Origin: a virus
DNA: 64,000 nucleotides
Virus record (IMG/VR): IMGVR_UViG_3300020185_004014
Location: 2,620-66,619 of that record
Reading direction: 5' to 3' (one strand)
In this document: in pieces, positions 24,717-49,739 of the stretch
Position numbering within the stretch: position 1 is the first letter of the stretch
Layout: each line of letters starts with the position of its first letter
Notes under the pieces: model-generated
What the model saw: the letters and a program-made list of their open reading frames with translations, nothing else
Told to the model about the DNA's origin: nothing
The model's database searches: none
Position numbers and translations under genes: made by a program

Positions 24717-24983
24717 ATGAAGTCACCTATAACATTTGAACAGTTTACCAAAAATCCAGTTGCAGCAATAGCATTCGCAGCGCTAGCAGTAATAGGGTAT
24801 TTGTATGTGGACATGATGGATATTCATGAATCCCAACTCGAAAATTTAGAATCTTCTTGTGTGCAGAGAATCGAGGATCATAAGGAAAGGATTGAATCCT
24901 TAGAAGAGACCATTCTTAGATATGAAGATAAACTAGAAGCCATTAACGAAAAGTTACTAGAATGTTTAGATACAAACAACTAA
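24717..24983 (+). CDS. membrane-anchored coiled-coil protein (inner spanin-like)
   Basis: N-terminal TM, heptad-rich C-terminus with Cys. Confidence 0.5.
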   Translation: MKSPITFEQFTKNPVAAIAFAALAVIGYLYVDMMDIHESQLENLESSCVQRIEDHKERIESLEETILRYEDKLEAINEKLLECLDTNN

Positions 24984-25504
24984 TATTTGTAGTATTATTA
25001 ACCGGTTGTACTACACAAGCGGGAGAAACTACACACCAACCTTTAGAACTCCCTATAGAATCTACCAAATTCCATCCTAATGATGATTTGTTAGCAACAG
25101 TAGAAGCTACTCTAGATGTAGCTGATGAAGCTATTGAAGGAATTCTTGAGGAAAAAATAAAAACCAAAAACAAAATTTCTACACTCCAGAATACTGTGGA
25201 CTATGAAGAATCTTTACTTGAAAATTTAGAGGGTTCTTTAGGAGCCAAAGATAGTTTACTTCTTGCCTATCAATCAACAAATCAAGTTCTTGGAGAAAAA
25301 GTTCAAGAAATAGAAAATAACCTAAATCATGCATTACATAGATGTAGTAATGAATGTTACCCTACAATCATAAAATTGAATCAAGAAAATCAAGATTTGT
25401 TATATAGCATTGATTCTTTACAAACTTGGGTTTTTTATTTGGATTCATTAATTTCCACCAATAGGAGGTTAAGCAAAAAACTCACCCCACATGAAATTAG
25501 ATGA
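24962..25504 (+). CDS. coiled-coil lipoprotein (outer spanin-like)
   Basis: Lipobox LLTGC after a short hydrophobic stretch; overlaps the upstream gene. Confidence 0.5.
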   Translation: MFRYKQLIFVVLLTGCTTQAGETTHQPLELPIESTKFHPNDDLLATVEATLDVADEAIEGILEEKIKTKNKISTLQNTVDYEESLLENLEGSLGAKDSLLLAYQSTNQVLGEKVQEIENNLNHALHRCSNECYPTIIKLNQENQDLLYSIDSLQTWVFYLDSLISTNRRLSKKLTPHEIR

Positions 25505-26203: not shown

Positions 26204-26704
26204 ATGCACACGATTGAGGATATTGAAAAACAGTTATCTCAACTTCAAAAGTTGAATTACAATCAATTTTTTTGGTGGCGCCGTTGGGGTCGAAAATCCC
26301 AACCACTTCACAATTATTCTCCCCTGATTGAAAAAATCCGCAATGGGGATTATGATCCAAGCCCATATCTTTTTCAAATTTATTATTGTAATTGGGAAAT
26401 TGAACAAAAGTACAAACAGTTTGAAGGCGATAGTCGTGCTCAAGCTTCCGAAACTCGTGTTGATAAAGAACGCCGTCGACGTCTTACTGCTGACCACGAA
26501 AAATATGAAAAAGAAAATCTTGCCCAATTGCAAAAAGATTTTCTTACGGTTTTTCGTATGACCAAAACAGATTACAAAAGAGATTCAATTGAGGTTGGAG
26601 GCACGCCTGAGGAATTTTATAATTATTGTGATGACACTTACGGCCGATTCAATCGTCCCTCAAATATACCCCGTAGAGGTCGACCACCAAAAATTAAACA
26701 ATGA
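26204..26704 (+). CDS. hypothetical protein with C-terminal AT-hook
   Basis: C-terminal PRRGRPPK. Confidence 0.7.
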   Translation: MHTIEDIEKQLSQLQKLNYNQFFWWRRWGRKSQPLHNYSPLIEKIRNGDYDPSPYLFQIYYCNWEIEQKYKQFEGDSRAQASETRVDKERRRRLTADHEKYEKENLAQLQKDFLTVFRMTKTDYKRDSIEVGGTPEEFYNYCDDTYGRFNRPSNIPRRGRPPKIKQ

Positions 26705-27519
26705 GTATACAAGCAACAGTAAAAGGAGTAAAAGTTTCACATGAAACCCCCTTTGCATACCTCCAATCAAGTTTGGAGTATAATGATTATGATTATCTCC
26801 TTCCTCACCTATATGATGAATACAAGGAATATAAAGAATTCTTCCAAAGAGATAATCATAGGGGAAGACGTTATATTATAATGGATAATTCCCTTCATGA
26901 ATTGGGGGTGCCTTATTCAAAGGGTAGAATGATTTCTATTATTGAAGAAATTAAACCCGATGAATTCATAGTGCCAGATGCTTGGGAAGATGCTACTTTG
27001 TCTATGAGACAAGCTAAAGAGTGGAGTTTTATTGAGTTACCTAAAGGAGTAACTAAAGTTGCGGTAGTTCAAGGTAAATCGTTTGATGACGTAGTAAAGT
27101 GTTATCAAACGTATAAATGGCTGGGTTATACGAAGATTGCATTCTCATATGGGGCTAGCTATTATAACGATATATTCCCACACCCCAATAAGGATGTAGG
27201 TAAAGCTTTAGGCAGGCAATTAGTTATTAGCAAAATGATTAATATGGGTCTTATAGGAAAAACCGATAGAATCCACCTTTTAGGTTGTTCTCTTCCACAG
27301 GAATTCTTATATTATAAAGATATAAAACAAATAGAAACTATAGATACATCCAACCCAGTAATGGCGGCCTTTGATGGTACCTTATATAAGGGTTGGGGGT
27401 TAAACTCCAAACCCAAAACTAAAATTGATGAAGTAATCAACTCAGAATGGGATGAAAGTATCTATGAAGGAATAAAACATAACACTACATATTTTAAATT
27501 AATTAATAATATAACATGA
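26701..27519 (+). CDS. TGT/DpdA-like guanine transglycosylase-fold protein
   Basis: IIMDNS, VAVVQG, IHLLGC, IDTSNP match the order of TGT/DpdA motifs (DSG, IVQG, HLLG, DS); overlaps queC. Confidence 0.6.
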   Translation: MSIQATVKGVKVSHETPFAYLQSSLEYNDYDYLLPHLYDEYKEYKEFFQRDNHRGRRYIIMDNSLHELGVPYSKGRMISIIEEIKPDEFIVPDAWEDATLSMRQAKEWSFIELPKGVTKVAVVQGKSFDDVVKCYQTYKWLGYTKIAFSYGASYYNDIFPHPNKDVGKALGRQLVISKMINMGLIGKTDRIHLLGCSLPQEFLYYKDIKQIETIDTSNPVMAAFDGTLYKGWGLNSKPKTKIDEVINSEWDESIYEGIKHNTTYFKLINNIT

Positions 27520-28313
27520 AAAAACAAGCAGTACTATCATTAAGTGGAGGTATGGATAGCTCCACTGTGTTACTTAGGTTATTGGCGGATGGCTATGAAG
27601 TAACAGCACTATCCTTTGACTATGGGCAGAAACACAGAGTAGAACTTGAACGAGCCCAAGCACTAGTAGATTATCTTAACGATAATGGTCAAAATGTAAA
27701 ATATGGAACTATTAAGCTTGATGGTTTGGCTCCTATGCTCAACAGTGCCCTTGTAGAAGGTGGTGATGAAGTACCTGAAGGTCACTATGAGCAAGAAAAC
27801 ATGAAAGAAACAGTTGTTCCTAACCGCAACAAAATATTTTCTTCAATTATTCAAGCAGTAGCATTATCAATAGCAAATGAAAAAAATACAGAGGTCCATA
27901 TTGCGATGGGTATTCATGCAGGTGATCACGCAATTTACCCTGATTGCAGACAAGAATTCAGGGACGCTGACTATACAGCCTTCACCGAAGGCAATTGGGA
28001 CGCTGAGCGCGTTAGCTATGTTACCCCTTATCTTAATGGGGACAAGTATGATATCTTGGTCGACGGGGCCAAGTGCTGCAACGAATTGGGGTTACAATTT
28101 GGAAGCGTTTATAAGAACACAAATACTAGTTACAAGCCCATTAATATTGATGGTACTTGGTACAGCGATTATAAATCTGCTTCATCGGTGGAAAGGGTTG
28201 AAGCTTTTCTCAAATTGGGAAAACCAGATCCGGTATCATATGCTGATGAATCAGGACCTGTTACCTGGGACGTTGTACAGAAGCATGTTAAAAACATTTT
28301 AGCTGAAGCCTAA
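27516..28313 (+). CDS. queC: 7-cyano-7-deazaguanine synthase
   Basis: SGGMDS, FDYGQKH, VPNRN, YPDCR. Confidence 0.93.
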   Translation: MKKQAVLSLSGGMDSSTVLLRLLADGYEVTALSFDYGQKHRVELERAQALVDYLNDNGQNVKYGTIKLDGLAPMLNSALVEGGDEVPEGHYEQENMKETVVPNRNKIFSSIIQAVALSIANEKNTEVHIAMGIHAGDHAIYPDCRQEFRDADYTAFTEGNWDAERVSYVTPYLNGDKYDILVDGAKCCNELGLQFGSVYKNTNTSYKPINIDGTWYSDYKSASSVERVEAFLKLGKPDPVSYADESGPVTWDVVQKHVKNILAEA

Positions 28314-28771
28314 TGTTTATATCAACTAAAGTATTTGACGGATTTAGCTGTGTGTTCCGTCAAGCTAAAGCAGAAGGTACACATTGTAGATTTCTCCATG
28401 GATATGGAATCAGCTTTAAAGTATGGTTTGAAGGTGAACCCGATGAACGTAATTGGGTTTGGGATTTCGGGGGTATGAAACGTGCTAAAACCGAAATTGA
28501 TGGTATGAGTGCTAAAATGTGGATGGATCATATGTTCGATCACACTATGCTTGTAGCAACTGATGACCCTTTCCTTGAATCATTTAGAAGGATGGATGAA
28601 GCAGGTGTAATCCAACTTAGAGAAATACCAGCAACAGGTGCAGAAAAATTTGCTGAGTATATTTATGGTAAGCTTAACCCATTCGTTCAGGAAGAAACCA
28701 ATGGTAGAGTTAGAGTTAAACAAGTAGAATTTAGAGAACATGGAAAAAACACAGCAATTTATGCTGAATAA
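28313..28771 (+). CDS. queD: 6-carboxytetrahydropterin synthase
   Basis: HCRFLHGY, DFGG, FDH, REHGKNTA. Confidence 0.88.
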   Translation: MFISTKVFDGFSCVFRQAKAEGTHCRFLHGYGISFKVWFEGEPDERNWVWDFGGMKRAKTEIDGMSAKMWMDHMFDHTMLVATDDPFLESFRRMDEAGVIQLREIPATGAEKFAEYIYGKLNPFVQEETNGRVRVKQVEFREHGKNTAIYAE

Positions 28772-28805: not shown

Positions 28806-29441
28806 ATGAAAAATGTTTTAATGGCCCTTGGGTTGGCCTTAACTACCCTAGTTAGTTCTGCACAAACAACAGTTGTAGATATTATTGTAAATAGTGAAGA
28901 TCACACTTTGTTAGAAGCTGCAGTTGTAGAAGCCGGATTAGTTGAAGCTTTAAGTGATACAACAGGTACATTTACAGTATTTGCACCGACTGATAGTGCA
29001 TTTATTGCGTTAGCAACTTCACTTCAACTCGAACCTACTGACCTATTAGAGCTACAAAATTTAACAGATATTCTTTTATATCACGTACTTCCGGAAGTAT
29101 ATTTAGGAGAGGTGCTTCTTCCACCATCAATTAATTCTATGTTAACCACTTTACTCCCTGAAGAACCAATGTACATACAATCAGATGGCATGACTATTAC
29201 AATAAATGGCATAGCTTCAGTAACTGTGGCAGATCTTATTACTGACAATGGTGTTGTTCATGTTATTGATGCAGTTCTTGTACCTAATAGTACCAACTCA
29301 GTATCAGAGCTAGAAAATAAAATCCCACAAAATAATATTTACTACAATATTATGGGTCAAGAAATTGATAGTTATGATCAAATCCCTTTTAACTCCATTT
29401 ACATTAAAAATGGTGAAAAGTTCTTAAAGATCGAAAGATAA
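28806..29441 (+). CDS. fasciclin (FAS1) protein with signal peptide and T9SS-like C-terminal domain
   Basis: Signal peptide ending SSA-Q; TVFAPTDSAF, ILLYHV, NGVVHVIDAVL; tail YYNIMGQEI...IYIKNGEKFL. Confidence 0.85.
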   Translation: MKNVLMALGLALTTLVSSAQTTVVDIIVNSEDHTLLEAAVVEAGLVEALSDTTGTFTVFAPTDSAFIALATSLQLEPTDLLELQNLTDILLYHVLPEVYLGEVLLPPSINSMLTTLLPEEPMYIQSDGMTITINGIASVTVADLITDNGVVHVIDAVLVPNSTNSVSELENKIPQNNIYYNIMGQEIDSYDQIPFNSIYIKNGEKFLKIER

Positions 29442-29442
29442 T

Positions 29443-30216
29443 ATGCTTAAAAGGATAGAAGATTACGATAAAGTATTACCTGTATTAGAGGTATATCGAT
29501 GCGTGCAAAGTGAGGGCTCCCGTTTCGGGCGCCCCACTATTGCCGTTCGAACCACAGGATGCACTCATAGGTGCTACTTTGGTGAAGGTGGATGGTGCGA
29601 CAGTTGGTACACATCAATTCACCCTGAAAAAGGTACATTTACATTTAATGACATTATCAATATTTATGATGAGAACCCTCAAGTAAAAGAGATGATGTTA
29701 ACAGGGGGTTCACCAACAATGCATCCTGCTTTAGTAAATGAACTTACCCACTTTGCCAACGAAAGAGGAATCCTCATTACAATTGAAACCGAAGGGTCTC
29801 ACTTCGTGGAAACGGATTTTCCACTTGGTCTCATATCCCTTAGCCCTAAGTTTTCTAATTCTATCCCTGTTGTGGGTGTTACTACTCCCGGTGGTAAAGT
29901 TGTTGATGAAAGGTTTGTCAAACAGCATAACAAGTTTAGACTCCATTATGAAAATATTCAAAAAATGATCGACTTCCATAGTGACTATCACTATAAACCA
30001 GTGTGGGATGGAACTGATGAAGGTTTAGCCGAAATTGAAGAATTTAGAGTTAAAATGGATATTCCTAAGGACAAAACATTCGTAATGCCAGCAGGTGATA
30101 CAAGAGAAACATTAATTGAAATGTATCCCAAAGTATTTGAGATGGTAGCAGAGCATGGTTATAATATGACTGGTCGTGATCACATTATAGCATATGATAC
30201 AGAACGAGGAGTATAA
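29443..30216 (+). CDS. queE: 7-carboxy-7-deazaguanine synthase (radical SAM)
   Basis: VQSEG...GRPTIAVRTTGCTHRC...WCDS, LTGGSP, IETEG, SLSPK. Confidence 0.9.
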   Translation: MLKRIEDYDKVLPVLEVYRCVQSEGSRFGRPTIAVRTTGCTHRCYFGEGGWCDSWYTSIHPEKGTFTFNDIINIYDENPQVKEMMLTGGSPTMHPALVNELTHFANERGILITIETEGSHFVETDFPLGLISLSPKFSNSIPVVGVTTPGGKVVDERFVKQHNKFRLHYENIQKMIDFHSDYHYKPVWDGTDEGLAEIEEFRVKMDIPKDKTFVMPAGDTRETLIEMYPKVFEMVAEHGYNMTGRDHIIAYDTERGV

Positions 30217-30241
30217 TATCTGAATACAAAATAAAATTGAG

Positions 30242-30266
30242 AAAGGCACCTTTGGGTGCCTTTTTT
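30242..30266 (+). terminator. intrinsic terminator
   Basis: AAAGGCACC-TTTG-GGTGCCTTT followed by TTT. Confidence 0.85.
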
Positions 30267-30275
30267 AATATTTAT
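30267..30275 (+). promoter_or_regulatory. AATATTTAT motif (candidate late promoter)
   Basis: Directly after the terminator, upstream of ATG 30301. Confidence 0.4.
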
Positions 30276-30300
30276 TATAGAACGTTTTAAACAACAAGCT

Positions 30301-32277
30301 ATGAATAAATTATTTACTTTACTTTTACTGTTACTAACTCTTCCCCTTTTTGGACAAGATAGATGTGGAACCGATATATTATTTGAACAACAACTACAAG
30401 ATCCCAAATTTAAACGAAGCTATTTAAAACTTGAAAAATTAGCAAAGAAGGCAGAAGAAGCTAAAAAAGTTTTATCTATGCCTGATCTTCCCATTACAAT
30501 TCCTGTAATAGTTCATGTAATTCACTTTGGTGAACCTTACGGAACTGATTACCATTTACCTGTGGAATTTATACAAGAAGCTTTTGATAATTTAAATGAT
30601 AATTTTGCGGGAGAATTTAGTGATGACCCTACAACAAATACTCAAATAGACTTTTGTATAGCAAATGCTTCTACTGATGGAGAACCTATTGAAGGTATTA
30701 GATATTACGACTGGGATAATTTAGATATAGAGGAGTGGGATGCTACCGCTTTTTATAATAACCATATTGCAGTATCTAATTTATTGGGGTATGATAGGAA
30801 TAATTATTGTAATGTGTTTGTTGCCCCTTTTGGTAGCCCTTTAGGATTTGCTTACCTCCCCTCGTCTAATTTTGGGGTTTTTGTAGGTACTAATGCTTTT
30901 GGTATTACTAATACAGGGAATTATGGGTTAAATAGAACTTTAGTCCATGAAATGGGGCACTATTGTGGATTATACCACACATTCCATCAAACAAATACAT
31001 GTACTCCTACTAATACTAATTGTACATCACAAGGAGATAAAGTATGTGATACACCTATTACTACAGGAAACTTTGGGTGCCCCTTAAATGGGGGTGCTTG
31101 TGGGAATTCTTTAGTAGAGAATTTTATGGATTATACTAATGATGGATGTATGGATAGTTTTACTCAAGGGCAATCCTTAAGGATGTTATCACAACTAGAA
31201 ACCTTTAGACCAGGAGTGGTAAATAATAGTTTGGCATGTGGGGCTATTAATGGAGTAGATGTAGGGGTAAGTGGTTTAGCAGTACCTGATATTGGATGCT
31301 CTAATATTAAAGATATAACTTTTAATTTACAAAATTTTGGGGATAGTATAAGTGAAGCTACTATTAATTATTCTATAAATGGTGAAGATAATTTTATTAC
31401 TTGGATGGGTAATTTAGGCTTTGCTGAAAGTGAGATAGTGACTATACCTAATATTAATATGGGGTATGGTATTGTTGATATAGAGGTTAATGTAGAAGCA
31501 TTAGGTGACGTATATGAAGATAATAATATTAATACCCTCCAAATTAATAATTATGAAGGTACTTTTATAGACATTACTATAGAATTTGATGCTTTACCTT
31601 ATGGATTCGAATGGAGTCTATATAACTCAGATACTGAGGAATTAATTGATGAGGGGGGTTACTATGATAATGAGATATACGCATGTGAGGTTGAAACTAA
31701 CACCTATTGCTTAGAAGAAGGGAATTATGTTTTAGTTTTAGAAGACCTATTCGGAAATGGTATGTTTTACCCTTGTGGGGGTCCAACTTCTATTATAAAT
31801 GGTAATGATACTCTAAACACAGTAACAGGAAATTGGGGAGATGAAGAGATATTACCTTTTTATGTAGGTCCTCCTGACCCTTGCCCCCTATCAGATTGCC
31901 CTTGGGATGTAGATGGGAATGGGTACGTTTGGACTAATGACATACTTGTGATATTACAATATTATGGACTCGAAACAGAATGTAGTCCTTTTGATATTAA
32001 CCAAGATGGTGTAGTAGGAGTTGATGATATATTAGATGCTATTGCTAACTTCAACACAGAATGTACTACTGGTGAATTAACACCTGAAGGGGGATTTGAT
32101 GCTTTTTTGAAAAATGAACAAGAGGGTAAATTAGTAACAACTACTTTATATAACATGATGGGTCAAAAGGTCCAAGAGGGAAACCACCTAGACACAGGTA
32201 TATATATTATAGTTAAAGAATGGAATGTCCCTGAAGTGGGTGTTTTTGTTACTAAAGAAAAAATCTTCCGTGAATGA
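30301..32277 (+). CDS. secreted M43 (pappalysin/ulilysin-type) zinc metalloprotease with dockerin-like repeats and T9SS type A C-terminal domain
   Basis: Signal peptide; RCGT Cys-switch; IPVIVHVI; HEMGHYCGLYHTF; NFMDY Met-turn; DVDGNG/DINQDG EF-hand pair; LYNMMGQKV...TGIYII tail. Confidence 0.9.
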   Translation: MNKLFTLLLLLLTLPLFGQDRCGTDILFEQQLQDPKFKRSYLKLEKLAKKAEEAKKVLSMPDLPITIPVIVHVIHFGEPYGTDYHLPVEFIQEAFDNLNDNFAGEFSDDPTTNTQIDFCIANASTDGEPIEGIRYYDWDNLDIEEWDATAFYNNHIAVSNLLGYDRNNYCNVFVAPFGSPLGFAYLPSSNFGVFVGTNAFGITNTGNYGLNRTLVHEMGHYCGLYHTFHQTNTCTPTNTNCTSQGDKVCDTPITTGNFGCPLNGGACGNSLVENFMDYTNDGCMDSFTQGQSLRMLSQLETFRPGVVNNSLACGAINGVDVGVSGLAVPDIGCSNIKDITFNLQNFGDSISEATINYSINGEDNFITWMGNLGFAESEIVTIPNINMGYGIVDIEVNVEALGDVYEDNNINTLQINNYEGTFIDITIEFDALPYGFEWSLYNSDTEELIDEGGYYDNEIYACEVETNTYCLEEGNYVLVLEDLFGNGMFYPCGGPTSIINGNDTLNTVTGNWGDEEILPFYVGPPDPCPLSDCPWDVDGNGYVWTNDILVILQYYGLETECSPFDINQDGVVGVDDILDAIANFNTECTTGELTPEGGFDAFLKNEQEGKLVTTTLYNMMGQKVQEGNHLDTGIYIIVKEWNVPEVGVFVTKEKIFRE

Positions 32278-33809
32278 AAAAGTTAATATTAATTTTACTA
32301 CTTTTACCCTTTAATTTATTAGGTCAATGTGATGTAGCAATTACTGATGTAAACCTTAATACTTATGAGGTTACTATTGAAGTAATTAACTCTGAAGGAT
32401 GCACAGCTAATGGACCTGGTGGAGTAGATGGTGCTGTAACCATGTTACAGATAGGATACCACTTACCAGAAGCCATTGATCCTAATAATGAAGTTGTAGA
32501 TTTATTAACCCTACCTGATGCTCCTTGTAGCCCCCAATGGGTAGCCAATGGGTTCACTTTAGGAATGGTAGCAAACCAATACTCGGGATGGTGGTATAGC
32601 CCAACAGCAACCGTTACTTTTGACCCGGATTTAATGGGGGATGGTTTGGTAACAGGTGATGTGGTAGTAGTTCCACTTAATCCCCCTGGAGATTATGTAA
32701 ATACCCCATACCCCTTAGCGGAATGTGGTGATGATTTAATTGACTATTGGTTGTCTGAAGGTGAATGTATTGAATTTGTTGTATGGCAGTTAAATTATGG
32801 TGCTACTTGGCATACTGCTAATGGAGGATGGGCTGAAACTGCTAATGGCTACGTGCCTGACCCCTCTACTTACCAAGACCCTAACTGTAATAATTCATGG
32901 TACTTATGTAGAGATGAAAACCCAGGAGCAGCTGTAGCAAACCCTGATTTTTGTGAAACTATTTTAGACGAATGTAACGATCCCATAGCATGTAATTACA
33001 ATGAAAATTGGGGTGAACCTGGTGGGTTTTGTATATATTGTGATACACCTAATGGTGAAGAACTGTGTGAGGAGTATCAAAATGTAGGGGGTTATTGGAA
33101 TTTCTATTTTAATGCTTTTGACTGTTTAGAAGAAACAGAAAATGATACTATCTATATAGAATTACCTCCTGATACTATTATAGTTACTGAAATAGATACT
33201 ATTTATATAGAGTTACCTTCTGATACAATATATGAAATTGATACTCTTATAATTACTGTTACTGAAGTAGATACTTTATATATAGAATTACCTCCTGATA
33301 CTATTACTATAATAGAAATGGATACTCTTTATATAGAGTTACCCCCTGACACAATCATAGAAACTGAATTTATATTTGTAACTGATACTATAGTTGAAAC
33401 TGAATTTATAGTGTCAGTGGATACAGTTTATGTACTTTACACTGATACAGTTACAGTATATGAGTTTATAGAAATAAACTGTGAAACAGGATTACCTTGT
33501 AGTGAATTTAGAAATGAATGTAGTATTTACATACCAAATGCTTTCACCCCAGACAATGATGGGTATAATGATGCTTGGGAAATAGTGTTAGACCCTGAAT
33601 GTTGGACTGATGTTAAAGCTAAAGTAATAAGTAGATGGGGGGATGTTGTATGGGAATCTAACGATCCCAACAATTTAATTTGGAATGGCAGTTATGAAGG
33701 GGGAGATTATTATGTACAAGAAGAAATGTATATGTGGGTGTTTCAAGCACGAAAAAAAGGAACAACTGAAATTAAAGACTTAAAAGGATATATTACAGTT
33801 ATACGTTAA
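32274..33809 (+). CDS. secreted acidic Cys-rich protein with T9SS type B (gliding-motility-associated) C-terminal domain
   Basis: Signal peptide; CNDPIACNY; IYIPNAFTPDNDGYNDAW...SRWGDVVW...WNG...KGYITVIR. Confidence 0.88.
   Translation: MKKLILILLLLPFNLLGQCDVAITDVNLNTYEVTIEVINSEGCTANGPGGVDGAVTMLQIGYHLPEAIDPNNEVVDLLTLPDAPCSPQWVANGFTLGMVANQYSGWWYSPTATVTFDPDLMGDGLVTGDVVVVPLNPPGDYVNTPYPLAECGDDLIDYWLSEGECIEFVVWQLNYGATWHTANGGWAETANGYVPDPSTYQDPNCNNSWYLCRDENPGAAVANPDFCETILDECNDPIACNYNENWGEPGGFCIYCDTPNGEELCEEYQNVGGYWNFYFNAFDCLEETENDTIYIELPPDTIIVTEIDTIYIELPSDTIYEIDTLIITVTEVDTLYIELPPDTITIIEMDTLYIELPPDTIIETEFIFVTDTIVETEFIVSVDTVYVLYTDTVTVYEFIEINCETGLPCSEFRNECSIYIPNAFTPDNDGYNDAWEIVLDPECWTDVKAKVISRWGDVVWESNDPNNLIWNGSYEGGDYYVQEEMYMWVFQARKKGTTEIKDLKGYITVIR
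33144..33360 (+). repeat. four intragenic DT(I/L)YIELP(P/S)DT repeats (stalk)
   Basis: Units start at 33144, 33195, 33270 and 33321 (51-nt spacing within pairs). Confidence 0.85.
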
Positions 33810-33859: not shown

Positions 33860-34510
33860 ATGAAAGTCACACTATTAAATGTTACCCCAAATGCTGAAGA
33901 CCACATTGTGGAGGTTGCACGTGTATCTAGTTCACGTAAGGATAAGAAAGCTAAACCGGAAGGCCTTTTATCATACCTGGTACGACACAAACACTGGTCA
34001 CCGTTTGAGCATGGGCACGCAACCTTCGAGATTGAAACTTCCAAAGCCATCGGTATCCAGCTCATTCGTCACCGTTCCTTTTCTTTTCAAGAGTTTAGTC
34101 AACGATATCAAGATGTTAATAAGCTAGAAGACATTTTTGAGCCAATTGAACTTAGAGCACAATGTGAAGACAACAGACAAAGCTCAACAGAAGTAATTGA
34201 CCCTTCTCTCCTTGCTTCAGGAGGTCCCATTAAAATCAGTACGATGATTGAAAATCACTTAACATCAGCACACAACTTATATAATAATTTATTAAAAGTG
34301 GGTGTTGCACGTGAACAAGCTCGTATGATTCTCCCACTTGCTACAACTACTAAAATTCATATGACAGGTAGTATTCGTAGCTGGATTCATTTTCTTGAAT
34401 TGAGGGATGATGAACATGCCCAAAAAGAAATTCAATTAATAGCTAAAGAAATCAAAAAACACTTTGCTAAAGAATTCCCAGTAATAGCTAAGGCCCTAGG
34501 GTACGTATAA
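33860..34510 (+). CDS. thyX: FAD-dependent thymidylate synthase
   Basis: HWSPFEH, RHRSFSFQEFSQRY, AREQARMILP, HAQKEI. Confidence 0.95.
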   Translation: MKVTLLNVTPNAEDHIVEVARVSSSRKDKKAKPEGLLSYLVRHKHWSPFEHGHATFEIETSKAIGIQLIRHRSFSFQEFSQRYQDVNKLEDIFEPIELRAQCEDNRQSSTEVIDPSLLASGGPIKISTMIENHLTSAHNLYNNLLKVGVAREQARMILPLATTTKIHMTGSIRSWIHFLELRDDEHAQKEIQLIAKEIKKHFAKEFPVIAKALGYV

Positions 34511-34512
34511 GC

Positions 34513-34956
34513 ATGAAACATTTATTTGTATTATTTAATTTAGTTTTTTTAGTTGTTATTGGTTGCCATTCCCAAAAAATAGGGTATGAGTTAAGAACAA
34601 ACGGTAAATCATACCTTACTATAAGTCATAAAATACACGATAAAGGTGGATTAGAATTAAGACACAAAACTGACTTAGGCGAAAACCGATTTACTTATAG
34701 ACACAATTTTAAAGTAACAGACAAAGTAGTGTTTAGTGTTCCACTTCACTACAAAAAAGAAAAAAACGAACCTACTTGGGAACCTCGTTTAATTTATAAA
34801 TTTGATAAATTTAAACTTTGGGTGCAACAAGAATTTTGGTTTGACGAGATATATAATTTAGCAATCGCAACCGACATACCTTATAAAAATTATGTTTACC
34901 GAGTTGGTTGGGATACATCAAACACAATACGATTTAGAATTTCAATTAAAATTTAA
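34513..34956 (+). CDS. small exported protein, probable outer-membrane beta-barrel
   Basis: Signal peptide; alternating amphipathic strands with aromatics; ends FRISIKI. Confidence 0.5.
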   Translation: MKHLFVLFNLVFLVVIGCHSQKIGYELRTNGKSYLTISHKIHDKGGLELRHKTDLGENRFTYRHNFKVTDKVVFSVPLHYKKEKNEPTWEPRLIYKFDKFKLWVQQEFWFDEIYNLAIATDIPYKNYVYRVGWDTSNTIRFRISIKI

Positions 34957-34965
34957 CACAACAAA

Positions 34966-35904
34966 ATGAGTTTATTAGCAATGGTAGGTTTTGCACTTGC
35001 CGGTTATTCAGTTATCGCTAACGATAGCGTTCAAACATTAGGCACTTGGATTGCCTCTAACAGAGAAAAATTTAAATGGTACGTAATGTGGGCTGCTGCC
35101 TCAGCAGTAATGATAGGCACCTTAGTTTATGGATGGGTTACATATGATGGAGATATTTCATTTGGAAGATTAACCAAAATACCATTCCAAGAAGTACAAT
35201 GGTATCATGCATTAGCTCCATTAGCACTAGTTGCTCTTACTAGAAAAGGTATTCCTGTATCCACTTCATTCCTTGTACTTTCAGCATTTGCTTCTACTTT
35301 TGTACTTGAAAAAATGCTACTTAAAAGTGTAGTAGGATATGGATTGGCAGCTATTGCAGCTTATACTTTATGGTTTATTGTTTCAAATTTCTTTAATGAA
35401 GACAAAGACATTAAAGAAGAAAATAAAAAATATTGGAGAATAGGACAATGGTTTACTACAGGTTTCCTTTGGTTCACTTGGCTTTCACATGATGTAGCTA
35501 ATATTGCTGTATTCCTCCCCCGCCAACTTTCAGTTGTAGAACTTATAGGAGTAATTACTTTCTTTACAGCTGGTTTAGGATGGATTTTCTACCAACAAGG
35601 GGGTAAAATTCAACAAATTGTTCTTGACAAACAAAACACTAAATATGTTAGATCAGCTACCTTTATTGATTTAGTGTATGCTTTCCTATTACTTTATTTT
35701 AAACAGATAAATAACATTCCTATGTCAACTACTTGGGTATTTGTTGGATTGTTGTGTGGTAGAGAATTAGCATTGAATACATACCTTACTAAAAAGGGTA
35801 ATCTTAAACAAGTATTCCCAATTGTTGCTAAAGACTTCCTTAAACTTTTAGTTGGACTGGTAGTATCAGTTGCAATTGTATTGTTAATACATTACGTTTT
35901 ATAA
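34966..35904 (+). CDS. PiT/PHO4-superfamily-like inner-membrane transporter
   Basis: Multi-TM; duplicated IANDSVQT / SHDVANIA and PVSTS / PMSTT motifs resemble PiT GANDxAN and PxSTT. Confidence 0.65.
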   Translation: MSLLAMVGFALAGYSVIANDSVQTLGTWIASNREKFKWYVMWAAASAVMIGTLVYGWVTYDGDISFGRLTKIPFQEVQWYHALAPLALVALTRKGIPVSTSFLVLSAFASTFVLEKMLLKSVVGYGLAAIAAYTLWFIVSNFFNEDKDIKEENKKYWRIGQWFTTGFLWFTWLSHDVANIAVFLPRQLSVVELIGVITFFTAGLGWIFYQQGGKIQQIVLDKQNTKYVRSATFIDLVYAFLLLYFKQINNIPMSTTWVFVGLLCGRELALNTYLTKKGNLKQVFPIVAKDFLKLLVGLVVSVAIVLLIHYVL

Positions 35905-35918
35905 TAAATTATCTTTTC

Positions 35919-35962
35919 ATTGCTATGGCAGTCACAGTCATTACTGGGTCTGTCATAGCAAT
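35919..35962 (+). other. long intergenic RNA hairpin
   Basis: ATTGCTATGGCAG pairs with CTGTCATAGCAAT (13 bp, one G-U), plus an inner CAGT/ACTG stem. Confidence 0.7.
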
Positions 35963-35983
35963 TATTTTAAAAAACAATAAAAA

Positions 35984-36457
35984 ATGAAACTAAGTAAAAA
36001 TCTATCACTAAGTGAAGTAATTAAATCAAACACTGCTTTACGTAGGGGTATTGATAACACTCCCACAGAAAGCCATATCAAAAACTTAAAGTATGTGGCT
36101 GAAAAAGTGTTCCAACCTATTAGAGATCATTTTGATGCCCCCATTTACATCTCAAGTGGCTATAGAAGTCAGGCACTAAATGAAGCTATTGGGGGGTCTA
36201 CCCGTAGTTTCCACTCCCATGGAATGGCACTTGATTTAGACCAAGATGATAGGAATCGAGGAGTTAGTAATGCTGATGTTTTCTTTTATATTAAAGAATG
36301 TCTTCCCTTTACTGAATTAATTTGGGAATTTGGTGATGAAAATAATCCTAATTGGGTTCACGTAGCAATTGCTAAAGGAAGGGAAGATGAAAAGAATACT
36401 AAAATTGCTAAAAAAGTAGATAATCGAACTATTTATAGTAAATTTGATTTAAAATAA
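35984..36457 (+). CDS. endolysin, peptidase M15 family
   Basis: SSGYRS, SFHSHGMALD, WVHV. Confidence 0.85.
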   Translation: MKLSKNLSLSEVIKSNTALRRGIDNTPTESHIKNLKYVAEKVFQPIRDHFDAPIYISSGYRSQALNEAIGGSTRSFHSHGMALDLDQDDRNRGVSNADVFFYIKECLPFTELIWEFGDENNPNWVHVAIAKGREDEKNTKIAKKVDNRTIYSKFDLK

Positions 36458-36460
36458 TAC

Positions 36461-36483
36461 AGGGGGGACGTAAGTCCCCCTTT
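36461..36483 (+). terminator. GC-rich hairpin with GUAA tetraloop (terminator or 5' stabiliser)
   Basis: AGGGGGGAC-GTAA-GTCCCCCTTT. Confidence 0.7.
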
Positions 36484-36533
36484 GTGTCACATAAATACAA
36501 TCCAATTTAATTTTTAACCAAAAACAAAAACAA

Positions 36534-39272
36534 ATGAGACAAATCTCAAAATTTGCTTTAGTGGGAGTTCTTTGCATGATCTCTTCACTATCCTTTGCCC
36601 AAATTACGGGTAAAGTCACTGATGCTACTACAGGCGATGGCCTACCTGGAGCAACAGTTTTAATAGAAGGTAACACTACTGGTATTTCAACCACTGTAGA
36701 TGGTACCTTTAAACTAGATGCTACACCAGAGGGAACTTTGGTGGTCAGCTTTATCGGTTATGAAACTGCTAATTTGACAGCTAAAACTGATATGGGAAAT
36801 ATTTCCTTACAACCTACAGCATTAGGCTTAGCAGCAGCTTCAGTTGTTGCTAATGTAATTGATGTAGCTAAGGTTAGAGAAACCCCTGTAGCTGTATCTA
36901 CAATCTCCCCTCAAGAGATTGCACTAAAAGTAGGAAACCAAGAGTTTCCTGAAATTATGAATTCCACCCCTGGTGTTTATGCTACAAAGCAGGGAGGTGG
37001 ATATGGTGACTCACGTATTAGTTTACGTGGTTTTGACCAACGTAACACATCTTTCCTTATTAATGGTCAACCTGTTAATGATATGGAAAATGGGTGGGTT
37101 TATTGGTCCAATTGGCAAGGTCTAACTGATGTTGCCTCTGGTATCCAAATCCAAAGAGGTTTAGGTGCTTCTAGACTCGCAGTGCCTTCTGTTGGAGGTA
37201 CTGTTTCTATTTTCACTAAAGCTGCTGATAAAGAACAGGGTGGTAGTGTTTCCCAAACCATTGGTAACGATGGTTACACTAAAACTTCTGCTAACTATAA
37301 TAGTGGTAAAAATGAAAACGGATGGGCTACATCTTTCTTGTTAAGCAAATGGGCTGGTAACGGCTATGTTGACAACACCTCAGGAGAGGGTTGGACATAC
37401 TTTGGTGCTGTAGGTTATGAACCAGAAGGATCAAAACATGCCCTTAATTTATCTGTTTTAGGAGCAGGTCAGTGGCACCATCAAAGAGATGTTTGGGTAT
37501 CAATCCGTGACGCTCAAACTTTTGGAGAACAAAATAGTGATGGTATTAATACCCGTTGGAATTCAAATGGAGGTACTTTAAATGGTGAGGAGTTTAGCAT
37601 GCGTAGAAATTTCTATAATAAACCACTTGCTACTTTTAACTGGGATTGGGATATTAATGAAAATCTAGCCCTCAATACTTCACTTTACGGCTCAGCTGGT
37701 AGAGGTGGTGGAACAGGTCCTCGTGGTAAAAATTACAATGTCCACCCTTATAGAAAGGATTTGTATGAATTTATGTACGAGGATAGTATTACACAATTCC
37801 GTAATGAGGATGGTACTATTGATTTTGATGCTATTGTTGCTGATAACCAAGCGGGTGCCAGTGCTGGATATGGAACAGGTGATTCATTGTTAATGGGTAG
37901 TGATTTTTATGGCCAGTTAATTGGTTCTAATGGTTATAATGAAAATGGTGTTTACAAAAGTGGTATGGTTCGTAGAGCTTCTATGAATTCACATGACTGG
38001 GTAGGTGCAATTTCAAACCTCGAATATGATAAAGATAATTGGAGAGCATCTATTGGTTTAGATCTTCGTAGATATAAAGGATATCACTATCGTACTATTA
38101 ATAACTTAATGGGATTTGATGCTTATTACTCTACAGGTAATGATAACAGTAACGGTCAATTTGTTAATACAACTGTTGAAGCTAGCCCATTCCAAAACAC
38201 CGGTTTAAACGGTCCTAAAATTGATTACTACAATGTTGGTAATGTTGGATGGGCTGGTGTCAATGGTTTAGTTGAATACAGTGATGACGATAAATTAACA
38301 GCAGTTGTCCAAGCTGGTCTATCTAACCAATCTTTCCAACGTGAAGATTATTTCGACCAAGCACAAAACCCCATCTCAGAAACTGCCAACTTAACTGGAG
38401 GGTATCTCAAGGGAGGTGCTAACTATAACTTAGATGAGGCTAGTAACGTATTTTTTAATGCCGGCTTTATCTCACGTCAACCTAACTTTGGAGGTGTTTT
38501 CCCAAGCTATGCTAACAATATTAATGACGAACTCCAAAATGAAGAAATTACATCATTTGAGTTAGGATATGGTTATAATAGTGATGTATTAACACTTAAT
38601 GCTAACGTTTATGCTACTACATGGGGTAATAGGTTCCGTTCATTATCTTTGACAAACGCTCAAGGTATTGATGGATTTGCCCAATTTAGGGACATTGACG
38701 TGCAGCATAATGGTGTTGAACTAGAAGGCGTTTATCGTCCAACTAACCGTTTAAAAGTTAAAGGTGCTCTATCTATAGGTGATTGGAGATACACTAAGAA
38801 CTTTGAAGCTGAATTGTTTGATGACCAACAGCAATCTATTGGTACTGGTACTCTTTACACTGAAGGTGCTAAAGTTGGTGATGCTGCTCAATTTGTAGCG
38901 AATGCCGGTGTAGATTATAGAATCGGAAATAATATTAATGTTGACTTAGCCTATAGATTTGTAGATGGGTTATACGCTGATTATGGAATTACTGATTCTG
39001 ATTTTGCTAATCCTGATAACTTAGGTGCTTTGAAATTACCTTCATATGGTTTGGTAGATTTGGGTGCAACAGCTCGTTTTAATCTGTTTGACCACGATGC
39101 TTCATTCAGAGTTAACTGTAATAACTTACTAAATACAACCTATATCGCTGAGTCTAATACTAACATCCATGCTGATGAAAATTCAACTACATGGAACGGT
39201 GTTGACACACAGAACTTTGTATGGTTTGGATTTGGGCGCACTTGGAATGCTTCGTTGAAATACACATTCTAA
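36534..39272 (+). CDS. TonB-dependent outer-membrane receptor (Bacteroidota type)
   Basis: Signal peptide; ITGKVTDA...LPGATV...SFIGY N-terminal domain; plug ETPVAVS...PGVY...LRGF; C-terminal GRTWNASLKYTF. Confidence 0.93.
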   Translation: MRQISKFALVGVLCMISSLSFAQITGKVTDATTGDGLPGATVLIEGNTTGISTTVDGTFKLDATPEGTLVVSFIGYETANLTAKTDMGNISLQPTALGLAAASVVANVIDVAKVRETPVAVSTISPQEIALKVGNQEFPEIMNSTPGVYATKQGGGYGDSRISLRGFDQRNTSFLINGQPVNDMENGWVYWSNWQGLTDVASGIQIQRGLGASRLAVPSVGGTVSIFTKAADKEQGGSVSQTIGNDGYTKTSANYNSGKNENGWATSFLLSKWAGNGYVDNTSGEGWTYFGAVGYEPEGSKHALNLSVLGAGQWHHQRDVWVSIRDAQTFGEQNSDGINTRWNSNGGTLNGEEFSMRRNFYNKPLATFNWDWDINENLALNTSLYGSAGRGGGTGPRGKNYNVHPYRKDLYEFMYEDSITQFRNEDGTIDFDAIVADNQAGASAGYGTGDSLLMGSDFYGQLIGSNGYNENGVYKSGMVRRASMNSHDWVGAISNLEYDKDNWRASIGLDLRRYKGYHYRTINNLMGFDAYYSTGNDNSNGQFVNTTVEASPFQNTGLNGPKIDYYNVGNVGWAGVNGLVEYSDDDKLTAVVQAGLSNQSFQREDYFDQAQNPISETANLTGGYLKGGANYNLDEASNVFFNAGFISRQPNFGGVFPSYANNINDELQNEEITSFELGYGYNSDVLTLNANVYATTWGNRFRSLSLTNAQGIDGFAQFRDIDVQHNGVELEGVYRPTNRLKVKGALSIGDWRYTKNFEAELFDDQQQSIGTGTLYTEGAKVGDAAQFVANAGVDYRIGNNINVDLAYRFVDGLYADYGITDSDFANPDNLGALKLPSYGLVDLGATARFNLFDHDASFRVNCNNLLNTTYIAESNTNIHADENSTTWNGVDTQNFVWFGFGRTWNASLKYTF

Positions 39273-40148: not shown

Positions 40149-40844
40149 ATGGAAAATAAAAGAAGAAAGTTGCACAACGATATTGAGTGTGTGCCTGTGG
40201 GTTATGCCAATGGATCAGCAATGGATCGACCCCTTACATCTCATGAAAAGGAGGTAATGATTAATGAAGCAGCAGATGCTTATAGTAAATTTTTAGATGC
40301 CTTAAAATGTGATTGGAGAAACGACCCTAATTCAATGGAAACACCTAAAAGGGTAGCTAAAGCATATGTAAATGACTTATGGGCGGGTAGGTATAACGGA
40401 TTCACAGATATTACGTCTTTTCCTAGTGATGGTTATGACGGTATTGTCATTGAACGTAATATTCCCCTTACTAGTATGTGTTCCCATCATCACCAAACTA
40501 TTAGAGGTGTTGTTCATATTGGTTACGTCGCAGGAGCCGAAGGAAGAGTAATTGGTTTATCTAAACTTAACCGAATTGTAGAACATTTTGGAAGAAGGGG
40601 AGCAATCCAAGAACAACTCACCTCAGCTATCCATGGGGGTGTAGAAAAGGTATGTGAAGGTAATTTAGGAGTTATTGTTACTATAGTTGCTACCCACAAC
40701 TGCGTAAGTTGTAGAGGCATTAAACATTCAGGAGCAGCTATGGTAACAACTAAAGCATCTGGTGTATTTAGAGATGATACAAATCAAGCACGTAAAGAAT
40801 TTTTCGATAGCTTGAAAATTAACAATGGAGGACATCAAATTTAA
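40149..40844 (+). CDS. folE: GTP cyclohydrolase I
   Basis: ETPKRVAK, SMCSHH, GLSKLNR, QEQLT, HNCVSCRG. Confidence 0.95.
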   Translation: MENKRRKLHNDIECVPVGYANGSAMDRPLTSHEKEVMINEAADAYSKFLDALKCDWRNDPNSMETPKRVAKAYVNDLWAGRYNGFTDITSFPSDGYDGIVIERNIPLTSMCSHHHQTIRGVVHIGYVAGAEGRVIGLSKLNRIVEHFGRRGAIQEQLTSAIHGGVEKVCEGNLGVIVTIVATHNCVSCRGIKHSGAAMVTTKASGVFRDDTNQARKEFFDSLKINNGGHQI

Positions 40845-44678: not shown

Positions 44679-44938
44679 GTTTAAAACCACAATCAATACG
44701 AAATAACGTAAAAATTCTCTGTAATGATGATCCTATCTCTAAACAGGAAATTATAGATATGAGTGCCCTTTGGAGTGAAAAACAAATCATTTTCTTTAAA
44801 AAAATGTTAAAACAGGGAGGTACTGCTAAAATTAATAATACAAAATTTAAAATTATTATTGATGATCCTATTTTAACCTCTAGAGGAGAAAAAGATGGAG
44901 GTATAATACAAGTTCCTGACGCTGATACTAGATTTTAA
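44675..44938 (+). CDS. hypothetical protein between the two PolB parts
   Basis: 87 aa; ATGA and TAATG overlaps with both polymerase ORFs. Confidence 0.7.
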   Translation: MSLKPQSIRNNVKILCNDDPISKQEIIDMSALWSEKQIIFFKKMLKQGGTAKINNTKFKIIIDDPILTSRGEKDGGIIQVPDADTRF

Positions 44939-47006: not shown

Positions 47007-47538
47007 GATCTTAGGACACCAATCTAGTTATCGTATTATTAACCGTCACCTTAGGGGACACAAAACAAAACAAAATGACACATTTAATGTTAAACCCGGA
47101 CTTTGCAAGTCCACTTGACGTACTCGTCAAAAACTTTTTCGACTCACAAGGCAAATTTGAAGCCCCAAGTCGCCCAAACGTAACACATCCCATTGATGTG
47201 TTTGAAGATGAAAACGGTCTTACACTCGAAGTAGCTTGTACCGGCATCGATAAAAAAGACGTAAAAATTAGTATTGAAGGAGATATCCTTAGACTTTCTT
47301 ATGATAAAGGAAAACCCATGCCTAAAAAGGAAGAAAATGGGGTCCGATACTATCATGCAGGTATTAAAAAAAGCAATTTTAATTTAGGCTGGAAAATCTC
47401 TCGTAGATTTAACCTAACCAAATCCAGTGCTGAAATGGTGAATGGTTTACTTGTACTTAGTATTCCTTTTGCTACTGAAGCAAAACCTAAATCAATTACT
47501 ATAAAGTAATCCACTTTAGGGTTGGTGTCCTGAAGATC
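47007..47538. repeat. imperfect inverted repeat bracketing hsp20 (arms 47007-47025 and 47519-47538)
   Basis: GATCTTAGGACACCAATCT pairs with GGGTTGGTGTCCTGAAGATC: 19 bp, one bulge, two G-U. Confidence 0.8.
47075..47509 (+). CDS. small heat-shock protein (Hsp20/alpha-crystallin)
   Basis: PIDVFE, GIDKKDVKISIEGDIL, AEMVNGLLVLSIP, PKSITIK (IxI motif). Confidence 0.92.
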   Translation: MTHLMLNPDFASPLDVLVKNFFDSQGKFEAPSRPNVTHPIDVFEDENGLTLEVACTGIDKKDVKISIEGDILRLSYDKGKPMPKKEENGVRYYHAGIKKSNFNLGWKISRRFNLTKSSAEMVNGLLVLSIPFATEAKPKSITIK

Positions 47539-47552
47539 CCTTCGTATATTCC
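47521..47552 (+). promoter_or_regulatory. sigma70-type promoter upstream of orf-groES-groEL
   Basis: GTTG-N20-TATATTCC with TTCG extension. Confidence 0.55.
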
Positions 47553-47575
47553 CGCATAAAGCAAAAATAAGTTAC

Positions 47576-47829: not shown

Positions 47830-47830
<1 letters not shown>
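47576..47830 (+). CDS. hypothetical protein
   Basis: 84 aa, coupled to groES. Confidence 0.65.

Positions 47831-49739
<1,909 letters not shown>

Follow-up and report, generated by a model that had tools for sequence, protein, structure and literature searches.

A phage contig of marine Flavobacteriales encodes a protein with a type B sorting domain and two proteins with shortened type A-derived tails, putative cargo of the host type IX secretion system

Introduction

Can a phage supply cargo of its own to its host's type IX secretion system (T9SS)? This question is raised by three genes between positions 28806 and 33809 of a 64,000-nucleotide stretch of viral DNA, IMG/VR record IMGVR_UViG_3300020185_004014. 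The stretch, here called the window, comprises bases 2620-66619 of a single 66,619-base contig without terminal repeat, and all positions refer to the window unless stated otherwise. A first-pass annotation made from the letters alone had described the three gene products as substrates of the host T9SS: a fasciclin protein with a short type A-like C-terminal domain (CTD), an M43 metalloprotease with a type A CTD, and a Cys-rich protein with a type B CTD. The open reading frames (ORFs) are present where they had been placed and one of them has a bona fide type B CTD, whereas the two other tails are only derived from type A.

On balance we favor the reading that the phage exports these three proteins with T9SS-derived tails via the T9SS of the host and changes the surface or the surroundings of the infected cell. 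Since no T9SS machinery is present on the contig, the host system would have to be used. The features in question are the following.

28806..29441, + strand: fasciclin (FAS1) protein of 211 amino acids (aa), with signal peptide 1-19 (SSA/Q), FAS1 domain 34-160 and tail about 161-211
29286..29438, + strand: short tail ending the fasciclin protein (about 50 aa), with the motif YYNIMGQ...PF.SIYI...K
30236..30269, + strand: terminator-like hairpin separating QueE from the M43 gene, with 15 pairs and a T run
30301..32277, + strand: M43 zinc metalloprotease of 658 aa, with signal peptide (LFG/Q), catalytic domain, middle domain, dockerin/EF-hand-like module and shortened type A-like tail
31876..32100, + strand: dockerin/EF-hand-like repeats of the M43 protein, with sub-threshold scores
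32065..32274, + strand: shortened tail of the M43 protein, last 70 aa, type A-derived by profile-profile comparison
32274..33809, + strand: type B CTD protein of 511 aa, with signal peptide, N-domain 19-235, Cys-rich ACNY module, stalk 291-400 and CTD 419-511
33528..33806, + strand: type B C-terminal sorting domain, from hidden Markov models (HMMs) and structure model

Results

A complete type B sorting domain in a family of viral proteins

The type B CTD of the 511-residue protein is complete and bona fide. Residues 419-511 match PF13585 (CHU_C) with 49.6 bits (cut-off 27) and TIGR04131 with 38.1 bits (cut-off 35), and a six-frame scan of the contig returned the domain with 41.6 bits. In the AlphaFold model the CTD has a predicted local distance difference test (pLDDT) score of 81-92 and the repeat stalk one of 31-36. 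The VIA fold search aligned the modeled CTD with solved T9SS CTDs, namely those of NucA (Z 9.2, root mean square deviation 2.1, 74 of 75 residues), PorZ (8.5), PorU (8.2), FspA (8.1) and RemA (7.9). Such CTDs hold ranks 2, 4, 6, 7, 10, 12 and 13; judging by entry titles and the literature, the matched structures belong either to type A cargo or to PorU and PorZ, and none is labeled type B. A Foldseek search of the PDB with the type B model gave no match at E<=1e-3.

The remainder of the protein also agrees with its description as acidic and Cys-rich with a repeat stalk. It contains 89 Asp and Glu versus 11 Lys and Arg residues, 18 Cys and, in residues 291-395, 12 DT[ILV]xx units forming a DTxYxELPPDT repeat, for which TRF reported periods of 126 and 27. 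Immediately behind the predicted cleavage site, Q18, C19 and D20 are invariant in 39 aligned homologues.

Signal peptides were called by a heuristic of our own, based on Lys or Arg plus a hydrophobic stretch, and not by SignalP. It flagged 7 of 60 ORFs: the fasciclin gene (SSA/Q), the M43 gene (LFG/Q), the type B gene (MKKLILILLLLPFNLLG/Q, thus LLG/Q), and further a lipoprotein-like ORF, a 147-aa ORF resembling an outer membrane protein (OMP), a TonB receptor and an ORF at 41929. Signal peptides of Bacteroidetes typically end before Gln (Q-rule), and the three N-termini, each continuing with Gln, fit this rule as had been noted at first sight.

The family of the type B protein is frequent. It comprises 379 protein clusters at E<=1e-3, and relatives occur in at least 284 IMG/VR stretches. 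PF13585 is the only Pfam family in 115 of the 120 clusters listed, the longest contig among them measuring 292 kb. One relative is located in a phage genome of 66 kb that is 100% complete and bears direct terminal repeats, and the Atlas cluster matching the protein is labeled 'Viruses 100%'. The N-domain was found in none of 301 genomes sampled from the family of Polaribacter (Flavobacteriaceae), with 4 of 5 viral records matching as positive control. It gave no Pfam match at E<=10, no cohesin match, and Atlas scores of at most 0.77, which is below the lead level; the VIA rows for the full-length model were taken up by the CTD. Using tblastn against deposited phages, the type B protein matched two huge uncultured phages, in the CTD only.

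Type B substrates are commonly encoded beside a shuttle of the PorP/SprF type. In Flavobacterium johnsoniae an adjacent shuttle gene accompanies 9 of 12 type B substrates and is thus usual but not obligatory; the other three use an orphan shuttle instead, Fjoh_1677 (Paillat et al. 2025, PMC12618676). Because of these orphan substrates, the lack of a PorP/SprF gene on the contig does not exclude function. The TonB receptor has its closest relatives in marine Flavobacteriales; PorP/SprF genes were present in all five of these genomes that were searched, with 1-7 copies per genome. As a separate observation, L031 (G003:C1:132000-151900), a 270 kb viral contig with a CheckV completeness of 88% that shares the fasciclin family, has a gene for a PorP/SprF protein (154.9 bits). 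At a distance of about 7 kb from it, adjacent to an HNH endonuclease, a type B CTD protein of 998 aa is encoded. This phage may thus supply the shuttle itself; a host fragment or chimera is an alternative.

Shortened type A-derived tails on the protease and the fasciclin protein

The assignment of the second gene to M43 was confirmed. Its product matches PF05572 with 53.7 bits (cut-off 23) and contains the zinc motif HExxHxxGxxH as HEMGHYCGLYH at residue 216, with H216, E217, H220 and H226 invariant in the 22 full-length homologues. It contains 97 Asp and Glu versus 24 Lys and Arg residues, and 19 Cys. The terminator-like hairpin overlaps the GTG at 30256, so that the ATG at 30301 is the likelier start. 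No family could be assigned to the middle domain. The dockerin-like repeats remained below threshold: the excised module scored 15.5 bits with Dockerin_1 (PF00404, cut-off 22.9) and 19.3 bits with EF-hand_7 (cut-off 30). The D/G positions of the module are invariant in 22 homologues, and three proteins matched by the tail profile described below (P0282 and P0324, both M43, and P0317) pass the Dockerin_1 cut-off with 24.5-26.9 bits.

What had been taken for a type A CTD at the end of this protein is related to type A by profile-profile comparison, not by a match to the type A HMMs. TIGR04131 is passed by the type B protein, and TIGR04183 is failed by the M43 and fasciclin tails. An hhalign comparison of 31 M43 tails with 33 canonical CTDs gave 93.2% (P 2.9e-7) over 51 columns, with tail columns 9-60 aligned to CTD columns 27-89 of 91, and none of 30 column shuffles exceeded 1%. 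The tails of the closest M43 group have kept the motifs YN..GQ.V and GIYI...KKI; the YPNP strand is absent, and the segment separating the two motifs is shorter by about 12 residues. G33, Y47 and K66 are invariant in 22 M43 tails, K654 being invariant in the 22 full-length homologues. According to Lauber et al. (PMC10994853) a Lys near the C-terminus is almost invariant in type A CTDs and functionally important; the M43 tail has such a residue.

The short form of the tail separates the closest relatives of the protease from the more distant ones. For 212 M43 homologues found, the Pfam content was taken from the best 120. PF18962 was detected in 0 of the 76 closest (30-90% identity) versus 36 of the next 44, and these 44 include named proteins of Flavobacterium, Formosa and Chryseobacterium. 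Using tblastn, the protease matched one deposited phage record over residues 104-318, where the identity is 29.6%.

A profile of 22 tails was searched against a library of 1.84 billion representatives and matched 424 at E<=1e-3, at the C-terminus in most of the 150 listed. A Pfam scan of the 86 listed matches with at least 150 aa left 48 without a family; the other 38 contain M43 (8), C10 (2), LamG (5), CBM6/35, Fib_succ_major, pectate lyase, Big_2, LRR_5 and esterases, and in 6 of the 86 PF18962 lies under the tail-profile match. By their domain content, the passengers of the short tail look like typical secreted cargo. In the five candidate host-lineage genomes the profile matched one protein (E 4.9e-5, in a Flavobacteriaceae genome), which ends in a canonical LYPNP-type CTD. 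A TIGR04183 search of five related viral records gave 0 of 5 matches, but the controls gave no match either and the result is uninformative.

The fasciclin protein shows the same kind of tail. Its FAS1 domain matches PF02469 with 87.2 bits (cut-off 22) over residues 34-160, and it contains 27 Asp and Glu versus 5 Lys and Arg residues and no Cys. The short tail is found at the end of 17 of 22 viral fasciclin loci, behind one FAS1 domain, two FAS1 domains, or FAS1 plus a Cys-rich insert, and in 3 of the 22 a canonical type A CTD occupies the same place (E 1e-11 to 2.5e-13). Comparison of fasciclin tails (n=7) with the M43 tails by hhalign gave 90.6% (P 1.3e-6), with all 30 column shuffles at or below 3.5%. 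Searched over the 303 stop-to-stop frames of the contig, the M43-tail profile matched just the M43 and the fasciclin protein (the latter with E 1.7e-5), the next frame having an E of 0.44. A word-based search with the fasciclin tail returned 25 proteins, close fasciclin relatives only, and is uninformative on modularity; tblastn of the fasciclin protein against deposited phages gave no match. The annotation of this gene therefore stands for the FAS1 domain and the SSA/Q end, its type A-like CTD being a derivation from profiles instead of an HMM match.

Taken together, these sequence profiles show that the tails of the M43 and fasciclin proteins derive from the type A CTD in shortened form and are homologous to its last two-thirds. 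We infer that the short tail would act as an export signal.

Coupling of the protease and type B genes

The M43 and type B genes are joined by an ATGA stop/start overlap at 32274-32277, in line with the coupling that had been described. Neighbors were counted for the best 80 of at least 284 type B loci. An M43 gene is located directly upstream in 4 of these 80 (three from one lineage) and downstream in 1, and in 2 loci both are fused into one ORF (L184:2070-4976, 969 aa; L186:1035-3887, 951 aa). The fused ORFs start with a signal peptide and the M43 catalytic domain (profile positions 4-322), and continue with a type B protein in full length, QCD-like start and CTD included. Three parts of the split M43 protein are absent from them, namely the middle domain, the dockerin-like module and the short tail. 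The missing parts would be those that a free protease needs for its own export and re-attachment, and the fusions argue for a surface-displayed protease.

The genes are part of a variable island in phage DNA

The surroundings of the three genes contain the following features.

24962-25504: lipoprotein-like ORF with LLTGC lipobox, coiled-coil-like
33860..39272, + strand: remainder of the variable island, with ThyX, the 147-aa OMP-like protein, PHO4-like membrane protein, M15 endolysin and TonB-dependent receptor
34513-34956: 147-aa OMP-like protein, N-terminus resembling a lipobox (VIGC), conservation in relatives 92.5%
34966-35904: PHO4-like multi-pass membrane protein of 312 aa, with 35.9 bits for the PHO4 phosphate-transporter family (cut-off 33.7)
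36534-39272: TonB-dependent receptor, full-length, with CarboxypepD_reg, Plug and barrel domains and a Q-rule signal peptide

The fasciclin gene is placed between QueD and QueE, which are adjacent to each other in relatives. QueE (29443-30216), absent from the first-pass annotation, separates the fasciclin from the M43 gene. The order QueC-QueD-fasciclin-QueE-M43-typeB-ThyX-OMP-PHO4-like recurs in independent viral contigs of 100-110 kb, and a DNA contig of 1201 nt from run X1 spans QueD-fasciclin-QueE, so that linkage is supported by related phages as well as by a contig of another run. As the same gene block is present in independent viral contigs and phage genes flank the island, we conclude that the region is not a host chimera.

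The composition of the island varies. In L013-L015, QueE abuts a homologue of the gene at 39636 and the stretch from M43 to the receptor is absent, which identifies this stretch as an insert. In other relatives, for example L120, island genes occur in other combinations. Another contig of run X1 joins QueD to QueE at 28763/29446 and would represent a fasciclin-less variant, a weak indication resting on one contig with a 29-letter side; the relative L121 independently has no fasciclin gene. Most neighbors are 77-96% identical in the relative L004, where the type B protein (53%), the lipoprotein-like gene at 24962 (64%) and the M43 protein (65%) are the most diverged. The 64% identity of the 24962 ORF in relatives whose neighboring genes exceed 90% points to another fast-evolving exported protein. 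The PHO4-like protein, with 96% identity in relatives, is the most conserved gene of the island. PADLOC detected no defense family among the three proteins and four neighbors, except a 13.1-bit LeoA match on the 24962 gene.

The 147-aa protein belongs to all-viral Atlas clusters and has no Pfam match reaching its cut-off; among named leads, 'cyanophage outer membrane protein-like beta barrel' (PF24653) comes nearest (0.92). The idea that it could be a mini-shuttle for the type B CTD was dropped, because its neighborhood was the sole basis.

The contig belongs to a tailed phage of marine Flavobacteriales

A tailed phage of marine Flavobacteriales, so far uncultured, is represented in the window by about half of its genome. 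The source record is classified as a virus, is linear and has a CheckV completeness of 49%; replication and lysis genes and the synteny with viral contigs are those of a tailed phage. The + strand holds 63 of 66 ORFs of at least 110 aa, the three on the - strand overlapping longer + strand ORFs. G+C content is uniform over the window (0.31-0.39). Among 60 ORFs, PHROGs identified a DnaB-like helicase, both ribonucleotide reductase subunits, a UvsX-like recombinase, a single-stranded DNA-binding protein, exonucleases, QueC, QueD, QueE, GTP cyclohydrolase, ThyX, an M15 endolysin, a split DNA polymerase, a clamp loader, GroEL and Hsp20. The sole structural match in the window is phrog_8510 'virion structural protein' at 2620-3591, and no terminase, portal or capsid family was matched in this half-genome. 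The 5' end of the contig falls within a long ORF of collagen-like G-x-T repeats (contig positions 2-2194, upstream of the window), which probably caused the assembly break at the contig start; the ORFs that follow in window positions 1-3600 are probably fiber or structural proteins.

A blastn search of deposited phages gave matches limited to the Que and ThyX genes, in 12 records; phages matching QueD and QueE are Flavobacterium phage immuto, Cellulophaga phage phiST and relatives. The fasciclin, M43 and type B genes had no blastn match in deposited phages. The TonB-dependent receptor, relatives of which are encoded in 598 genome stretches, is 60-71% identical to receptors of marine Flavobacteriales metagenome-assembled genomes (MAGs) and of a Polaribacter chromosome; owing to this similarity, the marine Flavobacteriales were taken as the host lineage. 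No SusD-like partner was seen adjoining the receptor.

Other genes of the window

Further features of the window are listed below.

26701-28771, 29443-30216, 40149-40844: 7-deazaguanine gene set, with an ORF matching phrog_19058 and weakly DUF6610, QueC, QueD, QueE and GTP cyclohydrolase I
42993-44678, 44938-45864: DNA polymerase split into two ORFs about 260 bases apart, one matching the N-terminal and the other the C-terminal part of phrog_262
47075-49739: GroEL (phrog_5725, E 1e-163) and Hsp20
51744-59640, 61004-61717: glycosyltransferase cluster (GT2, GT8, GtrB-like) and a GH16 protein without signal peptide
63626-63918: tRNA genes Leu-taa, Arg-tct and Met-cat

The 7-deazaguanine set suggests modified DNA as in phage immuto, for which a DpdA is annotated; by its position, the phrog_19058/DUF6610 ORF is possibly DpdA-like. 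The glycosyltransferases and the GH16 protein are further genes that could alter surface polysaccharide.

Discussion

Our data suggest that the phage probably uses the host T9SS to decorate or alter the surface of the infected cell. A number of results weigh against this interpretation. Taken alone, the M43 tail reached 13.8 bits with TIGR04183 (E 0.044, cut-off 23) and had no PF18962 match at E<=10. The fasciclin tail alone matched neither model at E<=10, the whole M43 and fasciclin proteins matched neither, and the six-frame scan of the contig returned 0 type A matches. In direct comparison with canonical CTDs the fasciclin tail gave 7% with hhalign and E 0.65 with the canonical profile in hmmsearch; as these values are weak, it is linked to canonical CTDs solely via the M43 tails. 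The predicted structure of the M43 tail (pLDDT 81.6) has one helix and three strands, unlike the seven-stranded sandwich of solved CTDs. With this model the best Foldseek match in the PDB had an E of 0.13, and VIA found nothing at Z>=5 (best Z 4.7). T9SS CTDs occupy 7 of its top 50 rows (HBP35 4.5, RemZ 4.1, NucA 3.8, RemA 3.7, PorU 3.6, RgpB 3.5 and mirolase 3.4), and the alignments to RemZ, NucA, RemA and RgpB cover the last 44-49 residues of these CTDs. No cell protein with the short form of the tail was found in the five candidate host-lineage genomes, and secretion of RgpB stops if the packing of its CTD on the upstream domain is disrupted (Mizgalska et al., PMC11285876).

For the type B protein, the corresponding point is the missing shuttle, already remarked on in the first-pass annotation: PF11751 (PorP/SprF) gave 0 matches at E<=1 in the 66.6 kb contig, and none was found in the relatives G001 and G002 (69-74% complete). 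With no M43 gene nearby in 73 of the 80 type B loci, the pairing is not general and the type B protein has a role of its own as well. A hint of expression comes from RNA-library contigs of two studies, which cover the M43 and type B genes and bridge their junction, but such libraries can hold DNA; parts of the stretch were uncovered in RNA run X18, which is not readable as silence. Moreover, the genome is only half complete, and the host is known only as a candidate lineage.

Part of these results would be explained if the type B protein were the only T9SS cargo and the M43 and fasciclin tails were eroded type A remnants that do not direct secretion. In that case both proteins would be retained in the periplasm or on the inner side of the outer membrane, or else the tail would serve a different purpose such as envelope binding. 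The failure with the curated type A models, the loss of the PNP strand and of about 12 internal residues, the model without a seven-stranded sandwich, the lack of a short-form cell protein in the five genomes and the importance of CTD integrity for RgpB secretion (PMC11285876) all speak for such an erosion. We nevertheless regard it as unlikely, since the tail has been kept at the extreme C-terminus behind varied passengers across a family of 424 representatives, neither the near-terminal Lys nor the Gly in the YN..G motif varies, homologous fasciclins have a canonical CTD in the same position, and Lauber et al. (PMC10994853) describe the translocon pocket as plastic and hydrophobic.

Two further explanations concern the locus as a whole. 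The type B family could be associated with virions or lysis, the Ig-like CTD and the stalk serving as a fiber or decoration, or the protein acting at the outer membrane in lysis. An M15 endolysin homologue indeed shares the locus with the type B gene in 17 of 80 viral loci (L125-L191), the gene lies just upstream of ORFs resembling terminase and portal in the complete 66 kb phage (L132; named by eye, not by search), and the N-domain is confined to viral records in the data examined. This possibility appears quite improbable to us, because the proteins have a Sec-like signal peptide and an invariant Q-C-D behind the cleavage site, whereas virions assemble in the cytoplasm; furthermore, the CTD passes the type B cut-offs across a family diverged to 30% identity, with PF13585 in 115 of the 120 listed clusters, and the fused forms begin with a signal peptide and a protease domain. 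That host DNA was misassembled onto phage DNA, or a bacterial fragment misclassified as viral, might be suspected from three genes that look like bacterial surface proteins, from a receptor 60-71% identical to those of Flavobacteriales MAGs, and from a contig that has no terminal repeat and begins inside a repeat gene. This explanation is close to refuted by the position of the fasciclin gene between QueD and QueE, by same-strand phage genes on both flanks of the island, by the even G+C content (0.31-0.39), by a gene order that is repeated in several viral contigs independent of each other as well as in contigs from other runs, and by the occurrence of the N-domain in 0 of 301 bacterial genomes.

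If the three proteins are indeed exported by the host T9SS, the following sequence of events may be envisaged. The type B protein would be exported by Sec, pass the host SprA translocon, be taken over by a host shuttle of the PorP/SprF type and be retained on the cell surface, where its N-domain, known from viral records only, would be held outward on a repeat stalk of variable length. The M43 protein would be translated from the same message through the ATGA overlap, exported through its short tail, and would work beside or on the type B protein. During infection this module would alter the surface of the cell or its immediate surroundings. It may cut surface proteins such as receptors and adhesins, excluding other phages and keeping progeny off cell debris; alternatively it could digest external protein for uptake, which would be consistent with the adjacent TonB receptor. 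The fasciclin protein would contribute an adhesion domain.

A more specific proposal, which we offer tentatively and consider rather doubtful in its entirety, is that the M43 and type B proteins form a split, two-part and phage-specific surface-protease module delivered by the host T9SS. The type B protein would provide anchor and stalk, with its N-domain as a docking platform. The protease would be exported by a type A-derived tag of about 50-60 residues and dock via the dockerin-like calcium module, the fusions being the one-chain version, so that the infected cell would shave its own surface proteins including receptors.

Flavobacteriia are major degraders of material from algal blooms, and T9SS cargo shape their surface, their motility and their breakdown of polymers. 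Phages supplying T9SS cargo of their own would thus reprogram the surface of the infected cell and add a layer to phage-host and phage-phage competition, and with at least 284 IMG/VR stretches and 379 protein clusters the type B family would be a frequent case. The proteins could also serve as natural probes of T9SS mechanics: a type B CTD that needs a shuttle from another genome, and a shortened type A-derived tail as a possible minimal signal. Should the short tail work, it would show approximately how little of a type A CTD is still enough for the translocon.

Several known systems resemble parts of this locus. Display of enzymes on a surface scaffold by cohesin and dockerin is known from the cellulosome. 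Like there, the gene of an enzyme with a dockerin-like module adjoins that of a stalk protein presumably anchored at the surface, and in relatives enzyme and stalk are fused; unlike there, the type B N-domain has no cohesin match and Dockerin_1 stays below its cut-off. Cellular M43 proteases of Flavobacterium, Formosa and Chryseobacterium share with the phage protein the catalytic domain, the signal peptide, 25-30% identity and a homologous C-terminal sorting domain, but they have the full PF18962 (36 of the 44 distant homologues among the matches listed), whereas the 76 closest to the phage protein have none and contain the dockerin-like module instead. Phage morons that alter the host envelope are also well established, for example lambda Lom, Bor and the Gtr proteins of O-antigen conversion, which use Sec, Bam or inner-membrane routes. 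The genes described here are likewise phage-borne, variable and dispensable, with products probably directed to the host envelope; the difference is that their route would be the T9SS, which is specific for Bacteroidota. As in the orphan type B substrates of F. johnsoniae (PMC12618676), no PorP/SprF gene is adjacent and the shuttle would be encoded elsewhere; in F. johnsoniae it lies in the same genome, whereas here cargo and shuttle would come from the genomes of phage and host, respectively. Q-rule signal peptides have been described for phages of Porphyromonas gingivalis (Matrishin et al. 2023, PMC10367356), in passages that do not mention the T9SS.

The closest precedent is the metagenomic 'Cryophage' of Bellas et al. 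2020 (Nat Commun 11:4403, PMC7468147), which has three variable cargo genes with type A CTDs and for which hijacking of the host T9SS and superinfection exclusion were proposed. The statement of the first-pass annotation that no characterized example is known thus holds for experiments but not for the idea, which is already in print for type A cargo. We found no report of a phage type B CTD or of a bench test of phage T9SS cargo in a literature search that left most subscription journals and supplementary gene tables outside its range. Both phages have a host among the Bacteroidota and three variable genes with T9SS CTDs or tails derived from them, neither has T9SS machinery, and in both the cargo is known from sequence alone; as in the Cryophage (PMC7468147), the cargo genes described here are among the most diverged. 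The Cryophage originates from glacier cryoconite, and its cargo consists of an endoglucanase, a GH39 protein and a PA14 protein with recognized type A domains. In contrast, the present phage is marine and combines a type B protein with a passenger domain known from viral records alone, a shortened tail that fails the HMMs, and a protease/anchor pair with fused counterparts. New with respect to Bellas et al. are therefore the large family of type B cargo with a passenger found in viral records only, the shortened type A-derived tail on two different passengers, and the protease/anchor pair in split and fused form.

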